Positions 3,676 through 64,000 are shown, numbered from the stretch's first letter. The stretch: DNA of 64,000 bases from an uncultured Gammaproteobacteria bacterium (GCA_964553245.1 CAZKJM010000001.1:145806-209805); one strand, 5' to 3'. The notes: generated by a model not told the origin, from the sequence alone. Made by a program: numbers and translations.

Positions 3676-3679
3676 TTCT

Positions 3680-17565: not shown

Positions 17566-17808
17566 ATGAACAGTTCATTTCCAGGTTTACCATTTCCTCA
17601 ATATTTAATATATATAATAATGGTTTGGTCTATAGCCTGGAAAGGTTTAGCATTATGGCATTCGGCAAGAAATAATCAAAAAAACTGGTTTTTAGTAATG
17701 CTCGTAATAAATACTATAGGGATTATGGAAATTGTTTATTTATTTGGTTTCTCAAAGAAAAAATTAGCCCTCAAAGATCTTGCGTTTTGGAAAACTAAAG
17801 AAAAATAA
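17566..17808 (+). CDS. Small two-TM membrane protein, PLDc_N-like (cardiolipin-synthase N-terminal domain family)
   Basis: 80 aa. 'WSIAWKGLALWHSARNNQKNWFLVMLVINTIGIMEIVYLFGF' fits the conserved W..LW.A.RN...W...NT.GI...YL pattern. It is the only plus-strand gene in the 34 kb array and has its own upstream TTGCAT-N18-TATAAT promoter. Its 3' end overlaps the 3' end of the convergent YfhO gene by 45 nt. Confidence 0.6.
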   Translation: MNSSFPGLPFPQYLIYIIMVWSIAWKGLALWHSARNNQKNWFLVMLVINTIGIMEIVYLFGFSKKKLALKDLAFWKTKEK

Positions 17809-24834: not shown

Positions 24835-25534
24835 AATTTAAATCCTTCCAAAGAGAAAAGCTTTCTTTTATAGCTCTTATTATTACTCGCAGATTTCCTC
24901 CGCTTTGATCACCATATTTTCTTGGGTAATGAGATACTTCTACTTGATCTATACTTAATCTTGCTTTCCTAGCTTTTGCTAAAATTTCCGTAGTAATCAT
25001 TGCTCCTTCTGATTTGAATGGCATAATTTTTTTTAATGCATCTTTTTTAAATAATTTAAATCCGCAGTCAATATCCTTATAATAAAATCCAAAGAAAAAT
25101 AAATCCCAAATTTTTAATAAAGTCATTAAAAGATGTCTAAAGGGATGATCGTTTCTTTTTTTTCTAAATCCAATAACTATATCAACCTTTCTTATTTTCT
25201 CCAAAAATTTCGGAAGTTCATTAAAATTAAATTGATTATCTCCATCAGTAAAAACAATCAATTTATATTTAGCATTATTAAAACCATCTTTTAAAGAAGC
25301 TCCATATCCTCTGTTTGGCATATGAGAAATTACCTTGAGATTATTGTTTTTACTAGCAAGTTCTTTGGCAATTTTTAAAGTATTATCAGATGATCCATCA
25401 TCTATCATTAAGATCTCCCATCTTTGAACAAATTTATCCGCTACTGGAATGGCATTGTTTACAACTTTTTCCAAATTTTTTTCTTCATTCCAAAAAGGAA
25501 AAAAGATTGATAATTCGGGTACTTTTTTAATCAT
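24821..25534 (-). CDS. GT2 polyprenol-phosphate sugar synthase (DPM1/ArnC-like)
   Basis: 237 aa, 'LSIFFPFWNEEKNL', 'LMIDDGSSDNT', 'NRGYGASLKDGF', 'TDGDNQF'. Confidence 0.75.
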   Translation of the reverse strand: MIKKVPELSIFFPFWNEEKNLEKVVNNAIPVADKFVQRWEILMIDDGSSDNTLKIAKELASKNNNLKVISHMPNRGYGASLKDGFNNAKYKLIVFTDGDNQFNFNELPKFLEKIRKVDIVIGFRKKRNDHPFRHLLMTLLKIWDLFFFGFYYKDIDCGFKLFKKDALKKIMPFKSEGAMITTEILAKARKARLSIDQVEVSHYPRKYGDQSGGNLRVIIRAIKESFSLWKDLNCGRN

Positions 25535-27033
25535 TTATTTTTTTTCTTTCTAGTAAAAATTATACCAAGAACAACTATTAATATACCAGCTAGGGAAATA
25601 CTATTTCCGATTTTTTCTATAGGAGTGTCTATAAACACAAAAATTGGTTTGTTTTTTAATGCTTCTTCTGCATTTTTAGGTTTCTTAACATTTTTAGGGA
25701 GGTATTCATCGGAAATTTTTGAAGTTGTCCACCTTAAACTATAGTCATTAATATAGTCATTCGCTGTTTTATTTAATATTTCTCGTGGATGAAAAAATTT
25801 AAAATTTACCAAAACAATCAAAAGAATTGTTATTAAAAATTCTACAAAAATTATATTTTTATTTTTTATAAATTGTCTCGAAAATACAATAATTGAACCC
25901 CCTAAGAATGCGCTAAAAAATCCAACCATATTTAAATAACGCCATGGGTATTGAAAATATTTCATTGGAGAAATTAACTCCCAAATAATTTTAGATTGAG
26001 AAAGCATCAGGAAAATGGAAAATATTAATCCAGAAAACAAAACTATACACAAATATTTTGTTTTTTTATCAATTTCTTTTCCGAGCATCAAACTAATTAT
26101 TAAAAAAATCATAGAGAAAACAACGATTAAAATGTTTAATTTTCCTAACATAAACGACAATCCATCGCTACATGTTTTTGTAGATCCACCAAAACCCCAA
26201 TAGCTATACCAAAGTTGATCTAAGCATACGAAATGATCTTTGAAATCAGCTCCGCCACCGATTGTTGAAGAAACATTCGTATTGCCCATTTCCAAAATAG
26301 CCGGAAGCCAGTAAAATGCAGAAATTAATATGCTAAGAAAAAATGCAGAAATTAAATAAAACGTATTCTTGTTCTTTTTATGCTTTAAATTTAAGATTCC
26401 TAAAATTATAAGTAAAACTATCAAAAAAGGAGTAATCATCATTGCTGTTAAATTATGAGAAAGAATTACCCCGGAAAATCCGATTACAGAAATAATCACG
26501 TAAATGTATTTATTATTTTTAAATAATTTATAAAATCCAAAAAATGCTAAAGGAATAAAAGCATATGCCCACAGCTCGGAAATTGCTCCTCTGACATAAA
26601 TATTTACAGCATGATATGGAAAAAACACATATAAAAGAGCTGATATTATCCCTCCTTTTTTACCCCAAAATTCCCTGGCCAATAAATACATTGAAAAACT
26701 CGATAATAAAACCCCAAATATAATCATAATTTTTGTTGAAACTAAAGCGTCAAACCCTAATAAAACAAACTTTGCACCAAAATAATATGCAAGCGGCGCA
26801 TAGAAGTTAAAAATTGGATAACCAAGCCCGTAACCAAGGTCAGCTACCCATCTAACTGGAAACATCCCCATTTTGAGCGATTTTGCCATTTCATAAACTC
26901 TTTGCACTTGTGTATCATCGTGCATTGGGAAAAAACCGGAGTGAAAAAAAGACAAAATGCTAAAAGATGATAATAAAATTACCAAAATATATGGAATTAA
27001 TTTTTTGAATAAAGCCATACCTGTATTATACAA
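25531..27033 (-). CDS. Unclassified polytopic membrane protein, GT-C-like (paralog of 27061..28581)
   Basis: 500 aa, about 12 TM segments. First-loop 'SGFFPMHDDTQ...MFPVRWVADLGYGLGYPIFNFYAPL' is paralogous to 'TGFFTTDDGNW...QFPVRFLPRLNNDFGYPVANFLYPL' of the next gene. I cannot place the family by eye. Confidence 0.55.
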   Translation of the reverse strand: MYNTGMALFKKLIPYILVILLSSFSILSFFHSGFFPMHDDTQVQRVYEMAKSLKMGMFPVRWVADLGYGLGYPIFNFYAPLAYYFGAKFVLLGFDALVSTKIMIIFGVLLSSFSMYLLAREFWGKKGGIISALLYVFFPYHAVNIYVRGAISELWAYAFIPLAFFGFYKLFKNNKYIYVIISVIGFSGVILSHNLTAMMITPFLIVLLIILGILNLKHKKNKNTFYLISAFFLSILISAFYWLPAILEMGNTNVSSTIGGGADFKDHFVCLDQLWYSYWGFGGSTKTCSDGLSFMLGKLNILIVVFSMIFLIISLMLGKEIDKKTKYLCIVLFSGLIFSIFLMLSQSKIIWELISPMKYFQYPWRYLNMVGFFSAFLGGSIIVFSRQFIKNKNIIFVEFLITILLIVLVNFKFFHPREILNKTANDYINDYSLRWTTSKISDEYLPKNVKKPKNAEEALKNKPIFVFIDTPIEKIGNSISLAGILIVVLGIIFTRKKKNK

Positions 27034-27060
27034 AGATCAGGTTTAAATTGAAAGAAATTA

Positions 27061-28581
27061 TTATTCGATTTTATATCTGAAAAAGCTAATTAAACATAAA
27101 ATTAGAAGAGAAATTAGCGAAAAAATATCTGCAAACAACCTAATTTGTGTCTCCGTGAAATAAACCTGGACAAAATGGCTTCCTGAATTTAGGTTAAATT
27201 GAATTAATCCACCTTCGTTGTTATGGTTAATCATAGCTTTTTCCCTATTAACCACAACCATCCATCCGGGGTAATAAATGGTATTGATAGAGATCAGTGA
27301 TTTTTCTTTTATATCTGCTGTAAAACTGATCTTGCTCCCTTTATTTATTAAATTTTTAATCTCTCCTTTTCCTTTGATAATTTGAACTTTTTCTAAAGAA
27401 TTAGATATGGGTAATTTATTGACCCAATTAGGAATATATTCATTTTTTACTGTAGTTGTATCTTGATTGGTCGAGTAAAAAGCATCGGGATAATTAGTAA
27501 ATTCTTTTGGATAAATAAAATCTTTTGCTCCAAAAACCAAAAAAACCAAATAAATTCCCAACAGAATTATTTTTTGCTTTCCTTTAATAAGAGATAGTTG
27601 ATAAGCTATCAAAAAAGTTGTAGTTAAAACCAAGATTGAAATAAACCTAAAAGGAAATTGAATATAAGACGAAATAACCTGCCAAATAAAATCGGAGATT
27701 GGAAAAAGTAAAAACAAAACAATTACCGAAGATGCAAAAAATAACCAATAACTTCTATCCTTTATCTTTTTTACAAAAACAAAAGTAAATAGAAATGAGA
27801 TCAAAAACACCAAACCAATTAAATTTAAATCATGGAAATTTATAAAATAATTAGAATAGTCAGAGACCAAAACTCTATCAAAAACCACAAATCTTCTTTC
27901 ATAAATTGCAGGAAACCAAAAAAAACAAGATATCCCTAATCCAAAAATTAAAGATGTTAATATTTTTTTAATTTTCTTTTGGGAGAAATAATAGTAAAAA
28001 ATAATTATTGGAAAAAATAATAATGCCAATGTGTTATGTGATAAAACTAAAGCTGCAATACCAATGGATACAAAAAATAAACTATTTCTTTCTATCTGCC
28101 AAAAAATAAACGGGATAATTGATAATGCCAAAACTTCCCCAACTGATCCTCTTTTATAAACATCCCATAAATGATATGGAAAATATAAATAAACCAAAGA
28201 CCCAATCATAGAGGATAGGTTGTCAAACTTTTTTCTAAGCCACATAAAGGAAAAAAATGCTGAAGAAATTAAGCTTAAGCCAAAAATTATTTTTATTGTA
28301 TTTACAAAACTAAAACCTAATAAGTGGATTGGCACACCGATATACATAAATAACGGATATAAAAAATTAGCAACCGGATAACCAAAGTCATTATTTAATC
28401 TTGGTAAAAATCTAACAGGAAACTGACCATTTTTTAAGGCTTCGTAGAAAGCAGAGAATCTTATTATCATCCAGTTGCCATCATCTGTTGTAAAAAATCC
28501 AGTTTTGAAAAGCGTAAAAAATGAAGGAATAGACAAAATTAAAATTATTATTAAATACTTTATTAATAATTTATCTTTCAT
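27061..28581 (-). CDS. Unclassified polytopic membrane protein, GT-C-like (paralog of 25531..27033)
   Basis: 506 aa. See the paralog entry. It has a C-terminal extracytoplasmic segment and a final TM anchor. Confidence 0.55.
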   Translation of the reverse strand: MKDKLLIKYLIIILILSIPSFFTLFKTGFFTTDDGNWMIIRFSAFYEALKNGQFPVRFLPRLNNDFGYPVANFLYPLFMYIGVPIHLLGFSFVNTIKIIFGLSLISSAFFSFMWLRKKFDNLSSMIGSLVYLYFPYHLWDVYKRGSVGEVLALSIIPFIFWQIERNSLFFVSIGIAALVLSHNTLALLFFPIIIFYYYFSQKKIKKILTSLIFGLGISCFFWFPAIYERRFVVFDRVLVSDYSNYFINFHDLNLIGLVFLISFLFTFVFVKKIKDRSYWLFFASSVIVLFLLFPISDFIWQVISSYIQFPFRFISILVLTTTFLIAYQLSLIKGKQKIILLGIYLVFLVFGAKDFIYPKEFTNYPDAFYSTNQDTTTVKNEYIPNWVNKLPISNSLEKVQIIKGKGEIKNLINKGSKISFTADIKEKSLISINTIYYPGWMVVVNREKAMINHNNEGGLIQFNLNSGSHFVQVYFTETQIRLFADIFSLISLLILCLISFFRYKIE

Positions 28582-30946
28582 AAATTCTTTTAAATAAAAT
28601 CAAGTAAATGATTAATAAGAATACTCCGATTATTGATATCTTAAGCCCCGTAATAAATGATTCTGGAAAATAATACATTTCTAGCCTATGCTCACCTTGT
28701 TTTATGGGAATCGCTCTAAAGCTGTAATTTGCTCTGTAAATTTCTTTTTCTTTTCCATCAATTAAAGCTTTCCATCCGGGAAAATAATTGTCTGATATAA
28801 AAAATAAACTGTCTGCATCTGTCTTTATTTTAAAATTTAATTTATTTGGTGTATAGTCAACTATTTCAATATTACTTTTGGAGATTTTTCCAAGGGTAAT
28901 TTTTGGATCTTTTTCTAAAATTAAGGTTTCCTGCAAGTTTACTTTATCGTCATATATTTTTGAAATTATCTTATCTTTTCCATTACTGATTTCATAATTA
29001 TCCGCTAAATAAAATCTTGGGAAAACATTTTTGTTTTCATAAATTTGCCAGGGATTTTTTTGCCAAATAAGTTTATATGAATCTTGCGGAAAGGTAACGT
29101 AATCCGGATTAAATGACCCAGACATTAATTCATCTTTATGTAAAACATATTTTATCCCTAACAGATTAAGGATTCTTTGCCTATATGGGTTACTTTTTAA
29201 ATCCATATTGCCAAAACCCGGAGCAATATTTGCATCCGGACGCGGTAAGATATTAGGTAATTCACCATATTTCGAAGAAGCTAATAACTCTCCATATGAA
29301 GAAATATGTAATGGGTCGTTTCCCTCCGGTGAATAAGTACCATCTACGCTTTGGTAATTCGATTGAATATAACCCGAGCCATATCCCCAGAAGCGATTGA
29401 TTCCGGCGTTTTCTTGCAAATAGTTCATAACCGGAGTATTGGGGTAAGTAAAACTGTATGGCGAAAAAGGTGTAATCTTATTAAAAAAATATAATAAATC
29501 AAAAATTATTAATAACAGCACAAAAACTAAACTTATGTTTTTAAATTTATTCTTTAGATAAAAAATAATTAACGTTGCCAGTGTTAAAAACGACGGCAAC
29601 AACATATTTCGAATGCTAATTTTAAAATTATTGTCCGTGATGTAACCTGCTTTATAAATTAAAAAAGCAGCTGAAGAAAACAAAAGTATTGCAAGAATAA
29701 AAAACAACGGGTATTTGCTTTTTAAATTTTTTTCTTCTATCCAATAATTAATCCCCATCGCACCAAGAACTATTATTGAAAAAATGAAAATGCATAATTC
29801 TCTGGTCGGAATTGTTGTTGAAATTACCGGAATCGGCAATAAGTAAAAATACTTAATAAACGGTATATTTGTCGCAATGATTAAAGACAACGCTGCAATA
29901 ATTCCAAAAAATTTTTTTTCCGGTTTTTTTACTTTTAAAATTGCATAAACTGCGAAGAAAAAAATAACAACTCCCGGATACATTACTCTTTCTATATATG
30001 TTCCGTCAATCCAGTAATTCCTTGATGCGGGATTGCCAAAAAAATCAGGAAAAATTATTGTTATCCAATAATAAATCGGGGATAAAGTTTTGGAAAATTG
30101 TTCCAGTGCATATGATCCACGTGTTGAATTTTTAAAAATCTCAAGAGTCGGTAAAAATTGAAAAGCGGATAAAATGAATGGAAAAAATAAAATACTTAAA
30201 AAAATTATTGTTTTTTTTATCTTAGCCTTAACTTTTTGCGAGAACAACAAAAATAAAAAATATAACAAACAAATACTGTAAGCATAAAAAACTCCCTGGA
30301 TATATCCCGCCAATAAACTTAACGTAAAAATAATAATTAACGATAAAACATTTTTATAATTTTGTTGTTCTGTAAGCTTATTTATCAAAAAAAGAGCAAG
30401 AGGCAGCCAAAGAAACGTAGAACCAATATTGCCGTATTCTATCCAAACTACCATATATGAAGAAAACGCAAAGGCAATTCCGCCTATAACCGAAACAGTT
30501 TTTTGAAGCCGTAATCCTTTGTTTAAATAAATAAACATAAAGATTGCGGCAAAAAACGGTTGAGACATGATAAATAATGTCCAAGCAAAATTAAAAGGTA
30601 AAAATAAATAAAAAAGATTTAACGGATAAAAAACTGCTGTTTGAAAATTTGCCATCTGAGGGTTTCCGGAAAAATTATGAGGATTCCAAAAAGGAATTTG
30701 CCCGTTTTTCAGCTGCTCTATGGAAAAATACTTCCAAGGATATATTTCGTTTATTACATCTGGACCTTGTGCTTTATCTGGATAACTTCCCGGAGAATAT
30801 CCCAAAAACGATTCGCTTCTGTAGGGATTTTGGTTAATCAATAAGTCTCCGGGGAAAGGAATTTGTCCGTTAAAAATCGGTTTAAAAAAAATAAGTACAA
30901 TAAAAAGAATCAACAGATACGGATAAGTCCTTTTTAAAATTTTCAT
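28571..30946 (-). CDS. YfhO-like GT-C membrane protein
   Basis: 791 aa, 'NEIYPWKY', 'WNPHNFSGNP', 'IFPDFFGNPASRNYW', 'YPGVVIFFFAVYA'. Confidence 0.8.
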   Translation of the reverse strand: MKILKRTYPYLLILFIVLIFFKPIFNGQIPFPGDLLINQNPYRSESFLGYSPGSYPDKAQGPDVINEIYPWKYFSIEQLKNGQIPFWNPHNFSGNPQMANFQTAVFYPLNLFYLFLPFNFAWTLFIMSQPFFAAIFMFIYLNKGLRLQKTVSVIGGIAFAFSSYMVVWIEYGNIGSTFLWLPLALFLINKLTEQQNYKNVLSLIIIFTLSLLAGYIQGVFYAYSICLLYFLFLLFSQKVKAKIKKTIIFLSILFFPFILSAFQFLPTLEIFKNSTRGSYALEQFSKTLSPIYYWITIIFPDFFGNPASRNYWIDGTYIERVMYPGVVIFFFAVYAILKVKKPEKKFFGIIAALSLIIATNIPFIKYFYLLPIPVISTTIPTRELCIFIFSIIVLGAMGINYWIEEKNLKSKYPLFFILAILLFSSAAFLIYKAGYITDNNFKISIRNMLLPSFLTLATLIIFYLKNKFKNISLVFVLLLIIFDLLYFFNKITPFSPYSFTYPNTPVMNYLQENAGINRFWGYGSGYIQSNYQSVDGTYSPEGNDPLHISSYGELLASSKYGELPNILPRPDANIAPGFGNMDLKSNPYRQRILNLLGIKYVLHKDELMSGSFNPDYVTFPQDSYKLIWQKNPWQIYENKNVFPRFYLADNYEISNGKDKIISKIYDDKVNLQETLILEKDPKITLGKISKSNIEIVDYTPNKLNFKIKTDADSLFFISDNYFPGWKALIDGKEKEIYRANYSFRAIPIKQGEHRLEMYYFPESFITGLKISIIGVFLLIIYLILFKRIYER

Positions 30947-32532
30947 TATTCTTTAGGCGGAATAATTTTATAAACCCTGTAAAAATAATCGCTGTTTCCT
31001 GACCTTACCTGAAAAACTAATTCAAGCGGGTAGTCTTGATTAATAATTTGATTATTAGGTTGATAAAATACAAAGTATGAAGGCATTTTCTTGGAGTATT
31101 CAATTGTTTCTTTAGCGAGGCTGTGCTCAACCGGCCAATAACCTTTTATCGTAATATTTTTGTTATTTATTAAATATAACTCTAGAGCTTCAGGCATTAA
31201 ACCAAATGTTCCTTCGGTTGCAATAAATATCTTCTTGTTTTTTGCTTCTTTTTTAAAAAATTCAACACTTTCATTAACTCCCCAACCAGCCGCCCAGCTG
31301 TTTACGTACTGTCTACTATCACTTCTTACAATTGGTGCATTAATCGGGTCACTGGCAACTTTAAAACTTACAAATCCTGGATAAGCAACGAAAATAACTG
31401 TTACTACAATATAAACAACAGTTGATAAAATATTTTTTTTCTTTTTATTAAGTCTTTTATCTACAAAACCAATAATTTCGTTTAACCCCCAACCGGCAAG
31501 AGGAAGCAAGAAACAACTCATAAAAAAAATAAATCTCGGAAAAATTACTTTTCCAAAAAGAGCAAGCGCCGTAAATGGCAAGAGAAAATAAATTATCAGT
31601 AATATTTTTTCTTTTGTAAATTTATTTATAAAAATTAAGGATAAAATAACTAATAACACATATGGTAATTTTAAATATTGAATTAACCAGTCAAAAAGAC
31701 CATATAGATTCCCCACGAAAAATGTAAAAGGGTGATTGACCCACTCGGAAAAAGGATAAACAAAAGTCGCATTTTTAGCTTGAACCATTTGAAATAAGGG
31801 AGAGAGTCTTAGGGTGTTGTAAATAATTTGCGCAATAAAAATTGATATTAAAGCAAAAACTACCCATTTTAAAAGTCTTCTTAGAGTGTTTTTCCTTGAA
31901 AAATCAAAAAGTAAAATCGTAAAAGGTAAAAGATACTGACTGAAAAAATTTGAACTTTTTGTTAAAGCTCCTAATCCCATAACTACGCCTAATGTGTAAA
32001 CAAAATCAAACCTTGTTTTCTTAATAAGTTTTATAGAAAAATAAAAAGCCCAAATAGAAAAAGTTGCAACCATACTGTCCATTAATGCCATTCTGTCATT
32101 TATTTGTGCGAACGGATAAAAAACATAAAGAATTGAACTTAAATAAGCAATTTTTTTATTTTTAAAAAGCTCAATAGTTAGAAACCAAACCCCAATCATT
32201 GTGAGAAATCCTGTGCTTACAGAGACTACTCTTCCGGCAATTAGCGGATCGCTTATGAATTTCATGAAAATCATCGCTGTCCAAACAAATAAAGGCTGTT
32301 TACCATCTGTTAGGGAAATATACCTCCAACTTGCATCATTCAAAGCAATTTGTGCCCACCTAACATAAATTGCTTCGTCGGTAAAAATAGGCATAGAATC
32401 CAAATATAAAAGCCTAAAGAAGAAATATAAAAAGCCTACAAAAATCGCAAAAATAATTTCAATTTTGTTTTTTTTCAAAAACATCATACTTTGATTATAC
32501 AGAACCAATACGCTTAAGGTAAATAAGTACAA
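30946..32532 (-). CDS. PMT/ArnT-family (GT39/GT83-like) GT-C glycosyltransferase
   Basis: 528 aa. DE motif at 'MPIFTDEAIYVRWAQ', then 'DGKQPLFVWTAMIFMKF', about 11 TM segments and a C-terminal soluble domain. Confidence 0.75.
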   Translation of the reverse strand: MYLFTLSVLVLYNQSMMFLKKNKIEIIFAIFVGFLYFFFRLLYLDSMPIFTDEAIYVRWAQIALNDASWRYISLTDGKQPLFVWTAMIFMKFISDPLIAGRVVSVSTGFLTMIGVWFLTIELFKNKKIAYLSSILYVFYPFAQINDRMALMDSMVATFSIWAFYFSIKLIKKTRFDFVYTLGVVMGLGALTKSSNFFSQYLLPFTILLFDFSRKNTLRRLLKWVVFALISIFIAQIIYNTLRLSPLFQMVQAKNATFVYPFSEWVNHPFTFFVGNLYGLFDWLIQYLKLPYVLLVILSLIFINKFTKEKILLIIYFLLPFTALALFGKVIFPRFIFFMSCFLLPLAGWGLNEIIGFVDKRLNKKKKNILSTVVYIVVTVIFVAYPGFVSFKVASDPINAPIVRSDSRQYVNSWAAGWGVNESVEFFKKEAKNKKIFIATEGTFGLMPEALELYLINNKNITIKGYWPVEHSLAKETIEYSKKMPSYFVFYQPNNQIINQDYPLELVFQVRSGNSDYFYRVYKIIPPKE

Positions 32533-33707: not shown

Positions 33708-34478
33708 TTATTTATACTTTCCCTTAACACTGTTAATCTTTATTAAAAACAAATCTATTAAACCATTAATGGAATCTTTTATAGGGTTTACTCTTCTTGT
33801 TTCCACATATAGCCATTTAATTGGAACTTCTTTAATTCTATAGCCCATTTTTTGAGCTATATGTAAAAGCTCTACATCAAACCCCGCTGTAACAGAAGAT
33901 CCTGATATTGTTTTAAATCCATTATGTAATTTTAATATTTTTGTAAAAAGTTTATTGGAAGAATCTTTCGTAAATGTTTTGAAACCACATTGAGTATCGC
34001 TTATCCCTCTTACGCCAACGATTAGAGTTCTTAACAATATCATTCCTTTTGCCATTACTGCTCTTGTCCAAGGAGCACCTTTTCTGGTTGAATTTCTACT
34101 TCCAATAATTATGTCGTAATTTTCTTTAAAATAAGGCAATAACTTATCTAACTCTTCTATGGGAGCAGCCTGATCCATATCTGTAAAAAGCTGATAATCA
34201 CCTTTTGCTGCTAACATTCCCGTTGTTACGGCACCGGCTTTTCCGGTATGTGAATTTTTAATCAATCTAAAATTATTGTGTAGTTTTACAAAATCTTCTA
34301 TAAAAGCAATTCCATCATCATCGGATCCATCGTCTACAATTAAAACTTCGTAATTAAACTTTTTTTTACTCAGGAAGCTTTCAATCTTATCAAGGACTCC
34401 TTTTTGAAGATTTGCCATTTCGTTATAACAAGGTATTACAACAGAGAGGAAAATTTTATTCATAAAAGAATTATACAA
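33708..34478 (-). CDS. GT2 polyprenol-phosphate sugar synthase (DPM1-like)
   Basis: 256 aa, 'LSVVIPCYNEMANL', 'LIVDDGSDDDGIAFI', 'GKAGAVTTGMLAAKGDY', 'TDMDQAAP'. First gene of the minus-strand array. Upstream on the minus strand lies TTGTTT-N17-TATAAT. Confidence 0.75.
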   Translation of the reverse strand: MYNSFMNKIFLSVVIPCYNEMANLQKGVLDKIESFLSKKKFNYEVLIVDDGSDDDGIAFIEDFVKLHNNFRLIKNSHTGKAGAVTTGMLAAKGDYQLFTDMDQAAPIEELDKLLPYFKENYDIIIGSRNSTRKGAPWTRAVMAKGMILLRTLIVGVRGISDTQCGFKTFTKDSSNKLFTKILKLHNGFKTISGSSVTAGFDVELLHIAQKMGYRIKEVPIKWLYVETRRVNPIKDSINGLIDLFLIKINSVKGKYK

Positions 34479-35198: not shown

Positions 35199-36626
35199 TT
35201 AGTAGTTAATTTTATATATATAAGCATCATTAATATTTTTATACTTTATTATTTTCCCCTTTTCCTCCATGTTTTTAACTGCAGAATAAAAATTTTCATT
35301 TGATTCCAACAACTGAGTTGCCCATTGATTAGGACGTAAATCTACTATTAAATACTCTGGATTCCCTGCAAAATCAAGCCACCAGCATCCCTTACACACA
35401 GAGTCTTTTATCCTTGGGTAAATAAGATAAATTTCTTTTCTATGCGACAAATGAGGCACTAGATTTTGAGATGAGGCTATAGATGCATTCACTGGCACCT
35501 CTAAAAAAATCTTATTATTATCATCCATCCATGATTCATTTTGCCAGTAAATTACCTTTGATAATTTATTAAGAGGATAATGAAAAATAAACTGCTGAGT
35601 TAAAGAACTTATAACCATAATTATTGCTAAGATGCTTATGTTTATTTTTTTTCTTAAAAAGAATAAAACATCAAGTAATCCCAATAGAAGGAATGGAGCT
35701 AAGATAGCCCTATGATGAAGATAAGGCGTTACCATATGCCCAAATTCTTTTTGAGGAACAAAATATTGAGCAAGGTCTAGAAAAACAGCTAGAATAGCTC
35801 CTGGAGAAAAAATAGGAAGAAAAGAAAACCAGCCAAATGAATATAGCCAAACCAATATTTTTTCATTATTGTCAAAAAATTTATAAATTAAAGCAATTGG
35901 ATTTAAATCAAGTGACGGCCAGTATTGATACCCAACCGAAGACATTAAGCTAACAACCTTTACAAAAATTAAGCTTAACGCTAATCCACCAACAAAAAAC
36001 ATAATTCCTTGTTTTCTATATTGCTTTTTGAATAGATAAATTAATCCAACCCCCGCTAATGCAATTCCCATATTTTCTTGTGTTAAAAGCATTAAAACTA
36101 AAGTTATCCAAAACAATTTTTTCTTTTTCGCTTCAAAGAAATAGACAAACCATGATAGAAGAGCAACTCCAAGAACTATTGGATGAAAATCAAAATAAAC
36201 AGCAAATTGAATGCCAAAGAAAAGGCTATAAATAAAACCTAGGCATAAAGAAACAAAAGGAGAAAACCCTCTAATTTTTGCTAATTTATAAATTGGGATT
36301 GTAGAAAAAGCTATAAAGATAGCTTGAAAAATAAGTATTATTCTCACGTCTTCCCAAATCCAAAATAAGGGAGCAAGAAGAGGAAGCGTGAGAGTTAAAT
36401 GATCACCAAGAATAAATTTTTCTTTAATTGTGTTTATCGGAGATAAAAAATGAGCATATTGCCAAACTGTCTGATCAAATATTCCTAAATCAAATGCACC
36501 TGACTGAAAATGAACATGTCTTAGAACTGAGAGAAAAGAATAAAGTACGGAAAGTATAAATACCCATAGCAACATCAGCCAAAAACAATTCTTGTCTTTT
36601 ACTAATATTTCTTTAAAATATTTCAC
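35199..36626 (-). CDS. DUF2079-family polytopic membrane protein (putative GT-C-like)
   Basis: 475 aa. 'HFQSGAFDLGIFDQTVWQ' matches the DUF2079 signature. Many TM segments and a C-terminal soluble region. Confidence 0.65.
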   Translation of the reverse strand: MKYFKEILVKDKNCFWLMLLWVFILSVLYSFLSVLRHVHFQSGAFDLGIFDQTVWQYAHFLSPINTIKEKFILGDHLTLTLPLLAPLFWIWEDVRIILIFQAIFIAFSTIPIYKLAKIRGFSPFVSLCLGFIYSLFFGIQFAVYFDFHPIVLGVALLSWFVYFFEAKKKKLFWITLVLMLLTQENMGIALAGVGLIYLFKKQYRKQGIMFFVGGLALSLIFVKVVSLMSSVGYQYWPSLDLNPIALIYKFFDNNEKILVWLYSFGWFSFLPIFSPGAILAVFLDLAQYFVPQKEFGHMVTPYLHHRAILAPFLLLGLLDVLFFLRKKINISILAIIMVISSLTQQFIFHYPLNKLSKVIYWQNESWMDDNNKIFLEVPVNASIASSQNLVPHLSHRKEIYLIYPRIKDSVCKGCWWLDFAGNPEYLIVDLRPNQWATQLLESNENFYSAVKNMEEKGKIIKYKNINDAYIYKINY

Positions 36627-57870: not shown

Positions 57871-59052
57871 CTACTTAATATTGGCTACTCCATCTGTGGG
57901 CAGGATCTCAAACCAAATATTTCCGCGGTTGAATTCAATCTTTTTTCCATTTGCATCAAAAAGCTGTGTCCTCCCAACGCGCTTATCCTTTTTCCATGTT
58001 CCGTTTGTCTTTTTTCCATCCATTAAAATCGTTGCCTTACCCGTTCCTTTAGTTTTGTACAGTAAATGTAAATTATTTTCATATCCGTCATTAGCGCTGC
58101 TTTCTTGCATAAATAAAATAGCAATGTTTTTTGCTGTTATCTGCTTATTTGTATTTCTGTCTATATGAGGTTGCCCTCCATTATTCCTTTTGTAAACATT
58201 TAGAGTCGAATCATATATCCAGTCTACATAATAATTTGCATTTCCGTCCCAAAATTCTAGATGTGCCGTTTGAGTACTACCTCTTTCGGAAGAAGAAGCA
58301 TCATCTTTAAAACTATATTCTACAAAATCCTCATCCCAGGATTTTCCGTCTTCGTTTACATTTGATAATTTTCTGTTTTCTTTTCCATATTTCCATAACT
58401 TTTCTGTTGTGGAGTACATTGTATGCTCGGTATCGGTATCATGTCCTAGTCTTCCATAATCTCTCCAAAAAACAGGAAAGCCTATTGAAAATTGGTTTAG
58501 GTCATTGTAGCCTGTCCAACCGTAATCAGATATTTGAGATATTGCATCTGCAGGACCGGGTTGATTGGCTCCTCCAACGTGAGCATAAAGCGGAAAATCA
58601 CCGTATTCTGATGCAAAATCAAGAAAGTAAGTCCTCGCAGACCTAATCGGTCCAACTTGTCCTGCATCCTGACAATAATATAATGCCAAAAATCTTGTTA
58701 TTCCACCTTCTGCTACTGCTTCATAAACAACATCTGCATAAGATAAACCTGACTGTGGTCTTGCATTTTCGTGATTTTCTATCATTACACCAAGGGGTCT
58801 GTGTTTTTCCCACCAGCTTTTTTGTTGTTTTGAATATTTTACGCCATTTAATGGACAAGCTTCTGTTTTAGGTAATTTATCATCAAAAACTGTTTGTCCA
58901 TCCGCATTTTTAGTTGGAGAAGCAGTTGTGATTAATTCATCACCCGCTACGCCTCTTGAGAATAATAAATAAGATACACCTGTAGATGCAATATAAACTA
59001 AAATTATTAAAATTAATGTTAAGGTTTTATTATTTCCCATTTTATTTTGCAA
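57871..59052 (-). CDS. DUF3048-family (YerB-like) secreted/anchored protein
   Basis: 393 aa. N-terminal TM segment. 'ENHENARPQSGLSYADVVYEAVAEGGITRFLALY' matches DUF3048. Confidence 0.7.
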   Translation of the reverse strand: MQNKMGNNKTLTLILIILVYIASTGVSYLLFSRGVAGDELITTASPTKNADGQTVFDDKLPKTEACPLNGVKYSKQQKSWWEKHRPLGVMIENHENARPQSGLSYADVVYEAVAEGGITRFLALYYCQDAGQVGPIRSARTYFLDFASEYGDFPLYAHVGGANQPGPADAISQISDYGWTGYNDLNQFSIGFPVFWRDYGRLGHDTDTEHTMYSTTEKLWKYGKENRKLSNVNEDGKSWDEDFVEYSFKDDASSSERGSTQTAHLEFWDGNANYYVDWIYDSTLNVYKRNNGGQPHIDRNTNKQITAKNIAILFMQESSANDGYENNLHLLYKTKGTGKATILMDGKKTNGTWKKDKRVGRTQLFDANGKKIEFNRGNIWFEILPTDGVANIK

Positions 59053-59506
59053 CTCTTGCTTCCTTTATTGATTTTTTTTCTTCTTCAGACAAATCATGAT
59101 CCAGTCCTTTTCCGTTTTCTACTTTTTTTGCATACCATCTTGTCCCTGATCTGGAATAAAGGCCAGATATTACTACTCCCGTATCGTTACTGTCTAATAA
59201 AGAAAGAATAAAGCTCTGATCTCCACCTGTGTCTTTAAATGGATTAAAACGAATTAATCCTAGTTTCTGAACATGTAATTTTCCCTCTTTATCAATTTTA
59301 GCTGTGTAATCCTTAAGATTCTTTATTTCATTTTCCTGGAATCTAACATCTTTTAATAAATTTTCCAGTACTGTTTTTAAACTTTTTTCACTTATGCCTT
59401 TTGTTAATTTATTATAGTGAGAAATCGATCTCCATGAAAAAAATGTTATTAACAAAAGCCAAATCAAAACAAAAACAAACAATCCCAAAATTAAATTGGA
59501 TACCAT
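59042..59506 (-). CDS. DUF4446-family protein
   Basis: 154 aa. N-terminal TM segment. 'LGLIRFNPFKDTGGDQSFILSLLDSNDTGVVISGLYSRSGTRWYAK' matches DUF4446. Confidence 0.7.
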   Translation of the reverse strand: MVSNLILGLFVFVLIWLLLITFFSWRSISHYNKLTKGISEKSLKTVLENLLKDVRFQENEIKNLKDYTAKIDKEGKLHVQKLGLIRFNPFKDTGGDQSFILSLLDSNDTGVVISGLYSRSGTRWYAKKVENGKGLDHDLSEEEKKSIKEARVAK

Positions 59507-60171: not shown

Positions 60172-61758
60172 TTAATTTCCTTTATAATGGACTAATTTAT
60201 ATACCTTAACCACAGACACATCCCAACTGCCGGCAATCTCTGCTCTACCAAATCCCGCGATTTCCCAAAGAGAATTACCTAGGGGCTCACAGGGTACGCT
60301 TTCACAAACTATAAATAATTGCTCTGTAACTGTATTTCTTTGCGGATCATGAGCACTGTCTTGAATTATTACCGGAGGGTGATTCCAGATTGTAAAAAAA
60401 TATCTATAAGCATGGTCTGAATTACCTCCTGTAATTATGGCAAAATTAAATGGTTTTGCGTCTGTTTTAGTCATTATAAAATCGGCTATTGTCTTCATTT
60501 GATTTAATTGCCTGTTTGGCGGATGTCTAAATGGGATTCCATTTAAGTTTAATAGTATTAAAAATACTATTACTAAAGCTGTTATAAATTTAAATATCTT
60601 TTGCTTACTAAGAAAAAATTCTGCTGTAAAACCAATTAGGAAAAATGGCAAAGGAAATAAAAACTGAAAATAGTAGTCATAAATTGGTTTTTTATAAAAA
60701 CCGAAAAAGAATATGCCCAATATTAACCAGGTGTTAATTAAAAGATAGGGCATTAATTTTTCGTCTCTTTTTTTAATTGATTCATACATTCTAAATAAAA
60801 AATAACCAAAACTAATTAGTGATATTAAAAGAATAAATGCTGACCAACCAAATAATATGTTTTTACTGAATGATTCAATTCGCTCCGGAGGAGGAAATCC
60901 CATAACCAGCCTCGCAAAAAGTCTAAAAAAAACGTTACCGATAATTAAAAATAAATTTGAACCACCGCCTACTTCCGGAGAATTAAAAATAAATTTAATT
61001 AAGCTCGCTGTGTTTGGGAAACCATGTCTTGCTTCAAAGGCCAGATAAGGTGAAAAACCTACAAGAAAACCAAAAAAAATCATCAAATAAGGCTTTATTA
61101 CGCTTGAAAATATTTTTTTTTGCTTGTTTTTTAAAGCCCAAGAGATAAAAACATAGACAATAATTATTACTCCAACAAAAACCTCAATATAGTGAAGCTG
61201 CATTAAGATTCCATATAAAATCCCTGTGATAAAAAAGAATAAGGGCTTATTTTTATTAACCCCTTTATATAAAATATAAAGAGTAAGAAGAGTAAAGGGA
61301 GGCATTAGATTTGGATTCCAAGAAGAACGCGAATAAGCAACTACAATCGGAGAAATTGCATATAAAAAACTTGCAATTACGCCCGCTTTTCGACCAAAAA
61401 ATTCTGTTCCAATTTTATAAACTAACCAAACTGTAAATATTCCAAATAATGCAATCATTACTGCGGGACCGGCAGGATTGTAATTAAAAAACCATAAAAA
61501 CGGTGTTATGAAATAATAGTAAATCGGACCCAAAAAAAATCCTCCGACAGATGCTGTAGGACCAAGCAAAGTTAATTTACCATGAAGAATATCGTAAGCT
61601 ACTAAAACATCTCTTCCCTCGTCTCCTAAAAAAGTCATATAGTCAGAAATTCTATATAACCTTAAAAAAGCAGCAAGGGAAAGGATAAAAATAATTACCC
61701 AGTTCTTTAATATTGCGTCCGCCATCCGGCGGATAATTTTAAAAATTTGTTTCTTCAC
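60172..61758 (-). CDS. Putative GT-C fold membrane glycosyltransferase, PMT_2-like (paralog of 2167..3675)
   Basis: 528 aa. 'FLRLYRISDYMTFLGDEGRDVLVAYDILHGKLTLLGPTASVGGFFLGPIYYY'. 13 to 14 TM segments. Confidence 0.65.
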   Translation of the reverse strand: MKKQIFKIIRRMADAILKNWVIIFILSLAAFLRLYRISDYMTFLGDEGRDVLVAYDILHGKLTLLGPTASVGGFFLGPIYYYFITPFLWFFNYNPAGPAVMIALFGIFTVWLVYKIGTEFFGRKAGVIASFLYAISPIVVAYSRSSWNPNLMPPFTLLTLYILYKGVNKNKPLFFFITGILYGILMQLHYIEVFVGVIIIVYVFISWALKNKQKKIFSSVIKPYLMIFFGFLVGFSPYLAFEARHGFPNTASLIKFIFNSPEVGGGSNLFLIIGNVFFRLFARLVMGFPPPERIESFSKNILFGWSAFILLISLISFGYFLFRMYESIKKRDEKLMPYLLINTWLILGIFFFGFYKKPIYDYYFQFLFPLPFFLIGFTAEFFLSKQKIFKFITALVIVFLILLNLNGIPFRHPPNRQLNQMKTIADFIMTKTDAKPFNFAIITGGNSDHAYRYFFTIWNHPPVIIQDSAHDPQRNTVTEQLFIVCESVPCEPLGNSLWEIAGFGRAEIAGSWDVSVVKVYKLVHYKGN

Positions 61759-62894
61759 TTATGAGGTTTTTTTCGCCAGATTACAAATCTATACATAGAA
61801 AAGTTATAAATTAGAAGAACCGCTGTTGCTAATACAAAATAAACATATGGCAGTGGATATTCTCTGCCAAACATTATTTCACCAAGCTGAATTAACCCAG
61901 ACTGAATAATTATTACCCCAATATTAGAACTTGCAAAAAAACCCAACATTTTAATTAAATATGTTTTTCCGTCTTTCGTACCTTCATGTTTGAATGTCCA
62001 AATATTGTTTAAATTGTAATTGGAAAATATTGCGAGCTGAGCGGATAAAAGATTTACAACACCCAAAGGCAAAGTGGTTAAACCAATCAAAATCCTATAC
62101 GCTATTAGTTGAATTAAGAATCCAGTTCCTCCAACAACTAAAAATTTACCAAAAGTTCCATAAATTAATTCCTGTATCCTCACTTTTATTACAAAAATCA
62201 GGGTCTTAATAATAGTTTCTATACCCGGAATTTTAGACTTCCCAAGAGTACGATCCTTAGCATGAAATGGCACTTCGGAAACACTAAATCCATCTTTTAC
62301 AGCATTGTATAAAAATCCGACTTGGAATGTGTATCCTGTAAATTTACCAAGTTTATCCTTTTCTTTTATAAATACTTCCTTTTTAATAGCTCTATATCCC
62401 CCTGTCCAATCATTTATTCCCTTTCTTCCAAAAAGAATTCTTATAAACATATTTCCCCAAACAGATAAAAACTTTCTATGCATTCCCCAATCTTTTGGAA
62501 TTGATCCTCCTTTACTATAACGAGTTCCTATAACAAAATCGTTTCCTTTTACAATCTCTTCTATGAAATCTGAAATTTTTGTAGGATCATGAAAAAAATC
62601 AGCATCCATTTCAAACATAACATCTGCATTCAATTTTTCTATCGCATACGTCATTCCTCTAATATAAGCTGCTCCCAATCCCTCTTTTTTACCTACTATT
62701 AAATCTAAATTCTTGTATTTAGTCATTAATTCCCTAACTATATCTGCTGTTCCATCAGGAGATGTGTCATCTGCTACTAAAATTTTTAATTGATGATCTT
62801 TAATCTTAGGAAAAACGTTTTCTTCTAATATCGTTATTAATCTTTCTATATTTCCTTTTTCGTTATATGTAGGAATAATTATTACTGCATTCAT
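61755..62894 (-). CDS. GT2 polyprenol-phosphate sugar synthase fused to a GtrA-like four-TM domain
   Basis: 379 aa. 'VIIIPTYNEKGNI', 'LVADDTSPDGT', 'GLGAAYIRG', 'EMDADFFHDP'. The C-terminal 'GKFLVVGGTGFLIQLIAYRIL...' matches GtrA. Confidence 0.8.
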   Translation of the reverse strand: MNAVIIIPTYNEKGNIERLITILEENVFPKIKDHQLKILVADDTSPDGTADIVRELMTKYKNLDLIVGKKEGLGAAYIRGMTYAIEKLNADVMFEMDADFFHDPTKISDFIEEIVKGNDFVIGTRYSKGGSIPKDWGMHRKFLSVWGNMFIRILFGRKGINDWTGGYRAIKKEVFIKEKDKLGKFTGYTFQVGFLYNAVKDGFSVSEVPFHAKDRTLGKSKIPGIETIIKTLIFVIKVRIQELIYGTFGKFLVVGGTGFLIQLIAYRILIGLTTLPLGVVNLLSAQLAIFSNYNLNNIWTFKHEGTKDGKTYLIKMLGFFASSNIGVIIIQSGLIQLGEIMFGREYPLPYVYFVLATAVLLIYNFSMYRFVIWRKKPHK

Positions 62895-63859
62895 TAAACT
62901 AATTCTCCCTTAAAATATTCTACAGTCTTTTTGATTCCTTCTTCAATACTTATTTTCGGCTCCCAGTTTAATATTTTTTTTGCTCTTGAAATATCCGGTT
63001 TCCTTAAAAAAGGATCGTCTTCAGGCATATTTTCAAATATGATTTCAGAAGACGAATCGGTAATTTTTTTAACGATCTCTGCTAAGTCGAAAATGCTTCT
63101 CTCATCGGGATTACCTAAATTTATTACCTTACCTATGGCTTCTTTAGAAAATATTGCACTATTTAATCCATTAATCATATCGTCTATATAACAAAAACTT
63201 CTGGTTTGCTTTCCTTCTCCATATACAGTAATTGGTTCATTTCTAATTGCCTGATTAATGAAATTAGAAACAACTCTACCGTCGTCTTTTTGCATAAATG
63301 GACCGTAAGTATTAAATATTCTGATAATTCTTACTCTTAAATTAAATTTTCTGTAGTAGGTCATTACCATCGCCTCACCGAATCTTTTTCCCTCGTCGTA
63401 AACAGACCTTATTCCGTTTGGGTTAACATTTCCAAAATAATCTTCGTTCTGAGGACTAACTGTAGGATTTCCATAAACTTCCGATGTAGAAGTATAAAGA
63501 TATTCTGCATTCATTTTTTTTGCAATCTCTAATAAATTATATTGACCAAATGAATTAGCTAGCAGCGTTTCCATAGGGTAATTAATGTAGCTCTTTGGAC
63601 TTTTTTTATTTGGAGAGGCAGGCGAAGCAAGGTTAAAAATATGCGTAACATTTTTTATTTCTTTCTCTATTTCCCGAAGAGATTTTGAAACATCGTGCTT
63701 AATAAATTTAAAATTTGGATTATTAATTAACAACTTTATGTTTTTATCATCGCCTGTTATTAAATTATCCAAGCAAATAATTTTATTTTCTTTAATTAGT
63801 TCTTTACAGAGGTGGGAGCCAATAAAACCTGCTCCTCCGGCAACAAGAATGGTGTGCAT
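62894..63859 (-). CDS. UDP-glucuronate decarboxylase (UDP-xylose synthase)-like SDR, ArnA-decarboxylase-related
   Basis: 321 aa. Rossmann 'ILVAGGAGFIGSHLC', catalytic 'YDEGKRFGEAM' (the UXS-type YxxxK context), 'NTYGPFM'. Confidence 0.7.
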   Translation of the reverse strand: MHTILVAGGAGFIGSHLCKELIKENKIICLDNLITGDDKNIKLLINNPNFKFIKHDVSKSLREIEKEIKNVTHIFNLASPASPNKKSPKSYINYPMETLLANSFGQYNLLEIAKKMNAEYLYTSTSEVYGNPTVSPQNEDYFGNVNPNGIRSVYDEGKRFGEAMVMTYYRKFNLRVRIIRIFNTYGPFMQKDDGRVVSNFINQAIRNEPITVYGEGKQTRSFCYIDDMINGLNSAIFSKEAIGKVINLGNPDERSIFDLAEIVKKITDSSSEIIFENMPEDDPFLRKPDISRAKKILNWEPKISIEEGIKKTVEYFKGELV

Positions 63860-63866
63860 AAATAAA

Positions 63867-64000
63867 TTATTTGGTGTTTTTTTCGCGCTCTATGTCGGCT
63901 TTAACCATTATTTCTACTAATTGTTTAAAACTGGTTTTTGGTTTCCAATCTAAAACTTTTCTCGCTTTACTGGCATCTCCAATTAAATAATCTACTTCTG
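63867..64000 (-). CDS. gmd: GDP-mannose 4,6-dehydratase-like C-terminus (gene start beyond window edge)
   Basis: My translation of the minus strand gives '...[37 protein letters not shown]', resembling the GMD C-terminal 'GDxxKAxxxLGWKP...LVxxMVxxDLE'. The TAA stop is the reverse complement of 63867..63869. A dTDP-glucose dehydratase-like SDR cannot be excluded. Confidence 0.5.

Follow-up and report, generated by a model that had tools for sequence, protein, structure and literature searches.

The GT2 gene and the adjoining GT-C gene near the end of the window, i.e., the whole stretch of 64,000 nucleotides analysed here, could encode a polyprenyl-phosphate hexose synthase, probably with a GDP-sugar as donor, and a GT-C glycosyltransferase, working together as a two-protein system of extracytoplasmic glycosylation; we see about even chances for this reading. 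The pair would form the end of a conserved operon of ten genes for cell-envelope sugars in Candidatus Levybacteria (Patescibacteria). The open reading frames, domain calls and overlaps given in a preliminary description of this DNA were all recovered, the 4-nt overlap between GT2 and GT-C (GTGA) on condition that the latter starts with GTG. The features are:

63867..64000, minus strand: Gmd, 3' end (last 43 codons and stop), cut off at the window's end
62894..63859, minus strand: predicted UDP-glucuronate decarboxylase/UDP-xylose synthase (UXS), 321 aa; human UXS1 match
61755..62894, minus strand: polyprenyl-phosphate glycosyltransferase (GT2 and GtrA-like), 379 aa; PF00535 and PF04138
60172..61758, minus strand: GT-C fold membrane glycosyltransferase (PMT_2; GT39/GT83-like), 528 aa (GTG start) or 517 aa; Pfam match and AF2 model

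The fragment at the window's end, described before as GMD-like, is a true 3' end of Gmd, since its translation exactly matches the C-terminus of a parent-contig gene (L001:9022-9993), which is full-length there and whose protein reaches 441 bits on TIGR01472 (gmd; cutoff 415). On the parent contig, the tightly packed gene order is RmlA, Nudix, RmlB, RmlD, Ugd, Rmd, Gmd, UXS, GT2 and GT-C. The three genes formerly regarded as a compact three-step module do exist, but instead of a compact unit they form the tail of this 10-gene array, which extends beyond the window's end and of which UXS is gene 8. Seven sugar-nucleotide genes with intergenic gaps of at most 9 nt precede GT2, namely the dTDP-rhamnose set, Ugd, the GDP-D-rhamnose pair (Gmd and Rmd) and UXS, and the array has the capacity for four or more activated sugars. 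At its distal end, public gene callers place the start of GT-C at an ATG at 61725, 33 nt downstream of the GTG, which yields the 517-aa version; among orthologues of the pair, an overlap of –4 is the most frequent arrangement.

The 379-aa protein consists of an N-terminal GT2 (GT-A) domain (Glycos_transf_2, PF00535; residues 5–176, E 5e-25), two interface helices and a C-terminal four-helix membrane domain of the GtrA/DPMS type (GtrA_DPMS_TM, PF04138; residues 250–373, E 6e-14). The latter match reaches 52.6 bits (cutoff 26.1) and covers 117/117 profile positions; the domain belongs to the GtrA family and would be a putative flippase. In the AF2 model (pLDDT 87.6), the C-terminal helices span residues 247–272, 277–299, 309–342 and 348–372. 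Both domains occur in each of the best 120 of 7,723 homologues, so the fusion is genuine and not, as had been considered, a frameshift artefact, and fusions of GacI with GacJ are already on record (10.1101/180810). The former name “GtrB-GtrA fusion” is imprecise, the architecture being that of a type-III DPMS. GtrB sensu stricto was rejected, as there are four C-terminal GtrA-type helices instead of two and a loop K-E-G-L-G instead of R-N-F-G-K. None of the curated equivalog models was reached, the best NCBIfam model being AglJ with 59.7 bits (cutoff 325).

The protein belongs to the polyprenyl-phosphate glycosyltransferases of the GtrB/ArnC/DPMS group, of which it carries the predicted DXD motif and Arg/Arg/Ser ligands, and it is closer by far to Pyrococcus DPMS than to ArnC or GtrB in sequence, fold and nucleotide-base loop. 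The type-III DPMS of P. furiosus (PfDPMS; 5mlz, 5mm0, 5mm1, 9ep0), which likewise unites a GT-A domain, two interface helices and a four-helix GtrA-like domain in one chain, matches residues 3–326 with E 2e-32 (5mlz; identity about 28% in the structural alignment), compared to E 5e-7 for ArnC and E 2e-5 for GtrB, the last aligning to the N-terminal 146 residues only. Moreover, 5mlz is the best Foldseek match of the model (E 1e-20, TM 0.64/0.67) against TM values of 0.45–0.50 for ArnC and GtrB, and the leading fold matches comprise DPMS, ArnC and GtrB and no others. The residues that bind the lipid phosphate and the donor phosphate in PfDPMS are kept, and are conserved or invariant among orthologues: E12 is retained, D39 corresponds to D43, G68/L69 to G72/L73, D89/D91 to D97/D99 (D97-A-D99), H94 to H102, R117 to R125, R131 to R140, S135 to S144, R202 to R215 and K208 to K221. 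Shared features include the DAD motif, the R/R/S lipid-phosphate ligands, the R and K of the A-loop and the G-L base loop. In the polar pocket, N277 is kept as an invariant N292 and N248 is replaced by an invariant Q262, gating F338 lying beyond the reliable alignment. Two sugar/metal contacts differ, Q93 being replaced by F101 and K178 by Q191. Type-III DPMS have been defined by the motif DADxQHPP together with R117 in SRY, R131, S135 and K178 in KIL (PMC12992685). Here, the motif reads DADFFHDP instead of DADxQHPP (x = L, F or Y), with Q, S, F or M at the Gln position among orthologues, and R125 (in TRY), R140 and S144 are present, whereas Q191 stands in an F-Q-V context in place of K178. 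Strict type-III DPMS membership in the sense of PMC12992685 was therefore rejected on account of both the motif and K178.

With respect to the donor, guanine is read in PfDPMS by the backbone of G68 and stacking of L69, and N77 of ArnC (in R-N-Y-G-Q) serves UDP recognition. In a comparison covering three solved enzymes, the base loop K-E-G-L-G of the 379-aa protein resembles the K-G-L of PfDPMS and contains no Asn; N-x-G loops, as known from the UDP-dependent enzymes ArnC and GtrB, occur in the window's three short GT2 paralogues. GDP-mannose must be available in the cell given the neighbouring Gmd gene, and the residues suggest a GDP-sugar (mannose, possibly D-rhamnose) as the most likely donor. 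Use of another UDP-sugar (UDP-Glc, UDP-GlcA via Ugd, UDP-GalA or UDP-GlcNAc), with the GT-C decorating a rhamnose-rich wall polysaccharide, is a possible but less probable alternative, modelled on the donors of GtrB, RgtE, GacI and PpgS, the streptococcal GacI/J/L system and the Rml products. The occurrence of Ugd and Rml genes in every locus possessing the array, the weak NCBIfam similarities to AglJ, PgfS, PpgS and ArnC, the precedent of GacI/GacJ/GacL inside a rhamnan cluster and some activity of PfDPMS with GDP-Glc and UDP-Glc would be consistent with it. However, the base loop is devoid of the Asn of the UDP-dependent ArnC and GtrB, and the similarity to DPMS lies far above that to any UDP-dependent polyprenyl-phosphate glycosyltransferase.

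The 528-aa protein was assigned to the GT-C glycosyltransferases (GT39/GT83-like) based on Pfam PMT_2 (E 1e-15), with a predicted fold close to ArnT. Its AF2 model (pLDDT 85, pTM 0.85) matched AglB, STT3, ArnT (5f15, TM 0.59/0.58), ALG12, PglB and Pmt4 in Foldseek with a probability of 1.00, ArnT being the best size-matched neighbour, and the public names are “glycosyltransferase family 39 protein” and “ArnT-like.” The first extracytoplasmic loop features G-D46-E47-G-R-D50, with little or no variation of D46-E47 and D50 in an alignment of 56 orthologues, and the protein ends in a soluble domain of about 120 aa.

The gene upstream of GT2 encodes an SDR that falls into the Epimerase and GDP_Man_Dehyd families (E about 1e-44 in the profile search) and has human UXS1 (hUXS1) as its best PDB match (E 2e-91; 49% identity over 305 aligned residues), followed by the next enzyme class at 7e-42 and ArnA at 2e-26. 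All UXS signature residues are present in the motifs S-T125-S126-E127-VYG, Y154-DEG-K158 and R286-KPDI, where T125-S126-E127, Y154, K158 and R286 correspond to T118-S119-E120, Y147, K151 and R277 of hUXS1; E120 and R277 do not vary across UXS, and epimerases carry Ser and Thr at these sites (PMC3438964). Judged by these residues, it is a genuine UDP-xylose synthase of the UXS clade, i.e., a UXS-type decarboxylase, in line with the previous UXS/ArnA-decarboxylase-like assignment, and not an epimerase. An ArnA was rejected, as the 321-aa protein comprises only the SDR and no N-terminal formyltransferase domain, the ArnA model being matched over its C-terminal part 317–649 only (117 bits; cutoff 777). 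Neither an aminotransferase (ArnB) nor a deformylase (ArnD) was found in the 21-kb locus, so the gene content does not bear out the proposed match to ArnA/ArnC/ArnT. Common to the Arn pathway (ArnA/ArnB/ArnC/ArnD/ArnE-F/ArnT) is a UDP-GlcA decarboxylating SDR with a polyprenyl-P glycosyltransferase and a GT-C resembling ArnT encoded downstream of it, but here UXS is a stand-alone enzyme predicted to reduce to UDP-Xyl, the similarity to ArnC is weak and the host lacks lipid A.

A pentose donor had been predicted from UXS, which would imply an Arn-like route minus the amino-sugar steps: UXS provides UDP-xylose, the GT2 protein forms polyprenyl-phosphate xylopyranose, from which the GT-C attaches xylose to an envelope acceptor. 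We consider this unlikely. In its favour, the identity of UXS is firm, Ugd as source of its substrate UDP-GlcA is encoded in the same array, and the PfDPMS residue K178, which contacts the mannose O4, is replaced. The stop codon of UXS shares 1 base with the start codon of GT2 (TAATG) behind a Shine-Dalgarno-like run (AGGGAGA), from which the two genes are predicted to be translationally coupled, and UXS lies directly upstream of GT2 in 75/79 Levybacteria loci (95%) as well as in two of the 16 informative outgroup loci (L095, L097). This adjacency, however, does not single out UXS, because the entire 10-gene array is packed equally tightly. Using tblastn, UXS was missing at four Levybacteria loci from four separate clades (L018, L049, L055, L080), amounting to at least four independent losses within Levybacteria with GT2 and GT-C retained, and it is absent from the remaining 14/16 outgroup loci. 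Where GT-C directly follows GT2 in loci devoid of UXS (the four Levybacteria and the outgroup loci L088, L091 and L112), the gene abutting GT2 is Gmd or an Rmd-like SDR. Further evidence against xylose comes from the enzyme itself, which is DPMS-like rather than ArnC/GtrB-like with a guanine-type base loop. A literature search yielded no account of polyprenyl-P-xylopyranose formation from UDP-Xyl, and the known undecaprenyl-P-xylofuranose originates from PRPP (PMC11127046). With an array serving several sugars, the pentose inference from UXS is weak, and UXS is best seen not as dedicated donor supplier of the GT2/GT-C pair; it would rather be one more upstream sugar-nucleotide gene giving xylose to some envelope glycan.

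GT-C is located directly downstream of GT2 in all 79 informative Levybacteria loci, mostly overlapping it by 4 nt, and this order also occurs in four divergent outgroup loci (L088, L091, L097, L112). The two genes are genetically linked, as expected of a three-component extracytoplasmic glycosylation system, and the general logic proposed earlier, i.e., a lipid-sugar GT2 with a GtrA-like domain followed by a GT-C, fits this known scheme. That the genes are uncoupled, with the GT2 protein feeding several GT-C enzymes and the adjoining GT-C using another donor, would agree with the at least 12 other GT-C-type proteins in the window against about four candidate lipid-sugar synthases and with outgroup loci where no GT-C adjoins GT2 (L084, L090, L096, L099), but is improbable in view of this conserved adjacency.

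For the putatively GDP-sugar-dependent pair, we infer an order of reactions in which the DPMS homologue would transfer a monosaccharide from a nucleotide sugar, most likely GDP-mannose or possibly GDP-D-rhamnose from the adjacent Gmd/Rmd, to polyprenyl phosphate at the cytoplasmic face. The fused four-helix GtrA-like domain could present the lipid acceptor and/or aid the membrane crossing of the product, and the GT-C would finally hand the lipid-borne sugar over to an acceptor at the outer face, for instance a protein, a lipoglycan or a polysaccharide of the wall. The GtrA-like domain of PfDPMS may flip its product (PMC12992685), and GacJ stimulates GacI (10.1101/180810). In contrast to PfDPMS, which derives from a hyperthermophilic archaeon, the enzyme described here belongs to a bacterial and probably mesophilic host (Patescibacteria), its carrier is presumably undecaprenyl phosphate instead of dolichyl phosphate, and its sugar is putative.

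The same logic of a polyprenyl-P monosaccharide made by a GT2, a helper of the GtrA family and an extracellular transfer by a GT-C is known from GtrA/GtrB/Gtr, GacI/GacJ/GacK/GacL and CsbB/GtcA/YfhO, and the setting within a cluster holding rhamnose genes is shared with Gac. Unlike GtrB and GacI, the catalytic domain falls into the DPMS subfamily, without the R-N-F-G-K loop and the two-helix GtrB anchor, and the 10-gene array contains no separate Wzx or GacK-like flippase. A further system for comparison is that of actinobacterial Ppm1, a DPMS-family enzyme making polyprenyl-P-mannose, which is used extracytoplasmically by Pmt and other GT39/GT-C enzymes. Its catalytic domain, however, lacks a GtrA-type membrane domain, and its gene context is unlike that of the GT2/GT-C pair.

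Overall, the earlier description annotated a familiar system correctly but was too specific about the sugar. We regard it as a tentative option that the lipid-linked product is an undescribed polyprenyl-phosphate xylopyranose derived from UDP-Xyl, or polyprenyl-phosphate D-rhamnose derived from the GDP-D-rhamnose of the adjacent Gmd/Rmd, flipped by the fused GtrA-like domain. If the carried sugar is xylose or D-rhamnose, it would represent a new lipid-linked donor for bacterial glycobiology, and if the fused domain flips the product, the recent proposal for PfDPMS would extend to bacteria. This would define a family of self-flipping synthases with thousands of members in Patescibacteria, akin to the type-III DPMS recently called archaea-restricted. 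The lipid-sugar synthase and its GT-C, conserved as a single-copy pair that terminates a sugar-nucleotide operon throughout Levybacteria, are a reasonable first choice for heterologous biochemistry. The genome contains many gene sets of this kind; very little has been learned so far about the envelope chemistry of Patescibacteria (CPR), whose genomes devote a striking coding share to GT-C enzymes, with at least 13 GT-C-type genes in the window including 60172..61758.

The end of the cluster is formed by three complete open reading frames, which lie on the minus strand exactly where the preliminary description had placed them; Pfam likewise returned the SDR, GT2 with GtrA-type and PMT_2 domains that it had named:

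62894..63859, minus strand: UXS-type SDR, 321 aa (open reading frame and Pfam extended SDR)
61755..62894, minus strand: GT2-TM, 379 aa (Pfam Glycos_transf_2, residues 5-176, and GtrA_DPMS_TM, residues 250-373)
60172..61758, minus strand: GT-C, 528 aa from a GTG start (open reading frame and Pfam PMT_2)

The first two genes indeed overlap by a single common base (TAATG), which an AGGGAGA run shortly precedes. The proposed 4-nt overlap of GT2-TM and GT-C (GTGA) holds with the GTG start, but not with the ATG chosen by public gene callers, which is located 33 nt downstream and yields 517 aa; among orthologues, a 4-nt overlap is the commonest arrangement at this junction. Promoter and terminator scans used to delimit the operon gave fewer sites than shuffled sequence, and no terminator was detected after the GT-C gene.

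The reading of these genes as a compact three-step module is correct with regard to their contiguity, but they are the end of a ten-gene array running past the window. The 116.9-kb contig locus L001, which carries the identical UXS protein and extends beyond the window's end, encodes in gene orientation RmlA, a NudE-like Nudix hydrolase, RmlB, RmlD, Ugd, an Rmd-like SDR, Gmd, UXS, GT2-TM and GT-C, all 10 on the same strand and with overlaps or gaps of at most 9 nt. The Gmd-like fragment recognised at the window's end (134 nt) is the C-terminus of the Gmd that is complete in this parent contig, and the sixth gene product matches GDP-6-deoxy-D-lyxo-4-hexulose reductase (Rmd; PDB 2pk3, E 1e-65). 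UXS is thus one of seven sugar-nucleotide genes ahead of GT2-TM. This block has the means to make dTDP-rhamnose-type sugars, UDP-GlcA, GDP-D-rhamnose and UDP-xylose; it implies the availability of GDP-mannose, and the tight UXS/GT2 junction is nothing special inside it. In the rhamnose block (L001:3593-6752), RmlA, RmlB and RmlD are present without the dTDP-sugar isomerase RmlC, and the Nudix hydrolase sits between rmlA and rmlB; RmlC is encoded in the outgroup locus L083.

As had been assumed, the SDR is of decarboxylase and not of epimerase type. Its best solved relative is human UXS1 (E 2e-91, 49% identity over 305 aligned residues), followed at a distance by the next enzyme class (E 7e-42) and ArnA (E 2e-26). 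It retains the Tyr and Lys as well as Thr-Ser-Glu and the Arg that closes the loop. UXS enzymes invariably have this Glu and this Arg, where epimerases carry Ser and Thr instead (PMC3438964). By sequence, it is therefore assigned as a UDP-xylose synthase.

In 80 species-level loci from the genome collection, of which the properly named ones belong to Candidatus Levybacteria/Levyibacteriota (Microgenomates group), GT2 proteins are 49-84% identical to the window protein and the whole gene order is common. The GT-C gene directly follows GT2 in all 79 informative Levybacteria loci, and UXS directly precedes GT2 in 75 of the 79. At the remaining loci (L018, L049, L055 and L080), tblastn found no UXS, and GT2 and GT-C are kept. 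When the GT2 proteins were placed in a neighbour-joining tree, each of the four belonged to a different clade and stood beside UXS-bearing relatives, which indicates at least four independent losses of UXS from the locus. Full-length relatives of about 32–47% identity, collected from the representative library and a metagenome scan, served as outgroup; here, UXS occurs in only 2 of 16 informative loci (L095, L097). The gene abutting GT2 is Gmd in L088 and L112 and an Rmd-like SDR in L091, and in others it is trmD or an unrelated gene. Together, the losses and the rarity in outgroups show an old supercluster in which UXS is optional. Adjacency to such a gene cannot identify the donor, and the pentose donor predicted from UXS does not follow.

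Further features of these loci were noted. A divergent, opposite-strand Gmd replaces Gmd in L005-L009, L011, L012, L015, L033, L055 and L063 with the flanking order kept, a case of one gene being exchanged locally in an array that is rigid elsewhere. One Levybacteria locus (L081:12860-15045) contains a second, divergent Ugd-UXS pair directly downstream of GT-C. A DUF4446-DUF3048 pair (window 57871-59506, minus strand) is kept 0.4-6 kb downstream of GT-C in nearly all Levybacteria loci (L003-L082); next in the window come a 191-aa gene, for which no Pfam match is recorded, and then SecD/SecF. In the outgroup loci L083 (6886-9075) and L086 (5803-8022), a 729-739 aa GT2 + PMT_2 GT-C fusion protein is encoded near a GT2-TM homologue. 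Many close-orthologue records (L003, L004, L006-L008, L010, L013 and others) are titled 'uncultured Gammaproteobacteria bacterium' despite Levybacteria-type synteny, and these MAG records are probably mislabelled.

The GT2-GtrA fusion is real and no frameshift artefact, since both Pfam domains are found in all of the best 120 of 7,723 homologues (E 1e-20 or better); the AlphaFold model is confident as one chain (pLDDT 87.6). Sequence and fold both place GT2-TM closest to the dolichyl-phosphate mannose synthase of Pyrococcus furiosus (PfDPMS), which aligns to residues 3-326 and so extends into the membrane domain (E 2e-32; ArnC E 5e-7, GtrB E 2e-5) and is the best structural match (PDB 5mlz, E 1e-20, TM 0.64/0.67; ArnC and GtrB about 0.45-0.50). 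When the ligand contacts described for PfDPMS (PMC5526996) were mapped through the alignment, E12, D39, G68, L69, D89, D91, H94, R117, R131, S135, R202 and K208 were conserved and invariant among orthologues. Two contacts are changed, namely Q93 to F101 and K178 to Q191, the latter mapping relying on the F-Q / Y-K column pattern in a broader alignment. In the membrane-domain polar pocket, N292 preserves N277, and Q262 takes the place of N248. GT2-TM is like type-III DPMS in architecture but, as it reads DADFFHDP in place of DADxQHPP and K178 is not conserved, lies outside that family's strict motif definition (PMC12992685). In PfDPMS, GtrB and ArnC, the Gln of DAD-x-Q serves as metal/beta-phosphate ligand; the window protein has Phe instead (codon at 62592-62594), and Levybacteria orthologues (L003-L082) have Q, S, F or M at this position. 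These residues alternate whether UXS is present or not, which rules out the Q-to-F change as the mark of a UXS-linked donor change.

A sequence search of the GT-C protein against the PDB gave no match. Its confident model (pLDDT 85, pTM 0.85), in contrast, matched AglB, STT3, ArnT, ALG12, PglB and Pmt4 in a fold search, ArnT being the best size match (TM 0.59/0.58). GT-C enzymes place catalytic acids in the first extracytoplasmic loop, and here this loop carries an invariant G-D46-E47-G-R-D50 motif. The C-terminal soluble domain of ~120 aa contains the invariant Cys485 and Cys490 and matches no assigned family.

We propose that the DPMS-like enzyme would move a monosaccharide onto polyprenyl phosphate at the cytoplasmic face, that the fused GtrA-like domain could help to present the lipid, in the way that GacJ assists GacI, and/or act in translocation, a role put forward recently for PfDPMS (PMC12992685), and that GT-C would use the lipid-linked sugar at the outer face. 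This general scheme is very likely right. It is that of three-component extracytoplasmic glycosylation (Gtr, Gac, Csb/YfhO, Ppm1-Pmt), here with a DPMS-type synthase; the suggested match to the Arn pathway fails, as formyltransferase, aminotransferase and deformylase are missing and the SDR is UXS, not ArnA. Both the scheme and the fusion of a synthase with a small membrane partner (10.1101/180810) are already known, and the possible novelty would be a new lipid-linked sugar or a bacterial self-flipping synthase.

Among the available features, the nucleotide-base loop discriminates best between donors. In PfDPMS, the Gly68 backbone and Leu69 stacking recognise guanine (PMC5526996), ArnC has R-N-Y-G-Q, in which Asn77 serves UDP, and GT2-TM has K-E-G-L-G without Asn. 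The loop thus favours a GDP-sugar, an argument from three solved enzymes only that is suggestive, not decisive, and we give mannose or D-rhamnose an even chance of being the sugar. Another UDP-sugar is rather unlikely; the array can make UDP-GlcA, but the loop lacks the ArnC-type Asn. UDP-xylose itself, for which the frequent neighbourhood of UXS speaks, is more doubtful still given the repeated losses; our literature search found no report of polyprenyl- or undecaprenyl-phosphate xylose (lipid-linked xylopyranose) from UDP-Xyl, and the lipid-linked xylofuranose that is known derives from PRPP through unrelated enzymes (PMC11127046). Most plausibly, the xylose from UXS enters the same envelope glycan programme via some other glycosyltransferase.

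A very large glycan-assembly region also lies in the window (2167-36626, about 2.1-36.6 kb, minus strand), which in addition to the following genes holds many GT2/GT4 genes and a methyltransferase:

run 2167-12479 and 30946-32532, minus strand: at least seven further PMT_2 GT-C genes
14158-16428, 17764-20091, 25531-28581 and 28571-30946, minus strand: four or five YfhO-type genes
23380-24834, minus strand: Wzx-like flippase gene
35199-36626, minus strand: DUF2079 gene
12494-13213, 24821-25534 and 33708-34478, minus strand: three short GT2s (237-256 aa, no TM domain)

The GT-C density in this region is unusually high for a small genome. The three short GT2s, each beside GT-C genes and with weak matches to AglJ, ArnC, PgfS and PpgS, look like further polyprenyl-phosphate-sugar synthases. 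Their base loops (K-N-S-G-K-G, P-N-R-G-Y-G and N-S-H-T-G-K) are of the N-x-G kind, as in the UDP-dependent ArnC and GtrB. The short GT2 at 12494-13213 was considered as a better mannose synthase, which would free GT2-TM for another sugar, and was ruled out by its weaker match to DPMS (E 2.8e-18 vs. 2e-32) and its N-x-G loop.
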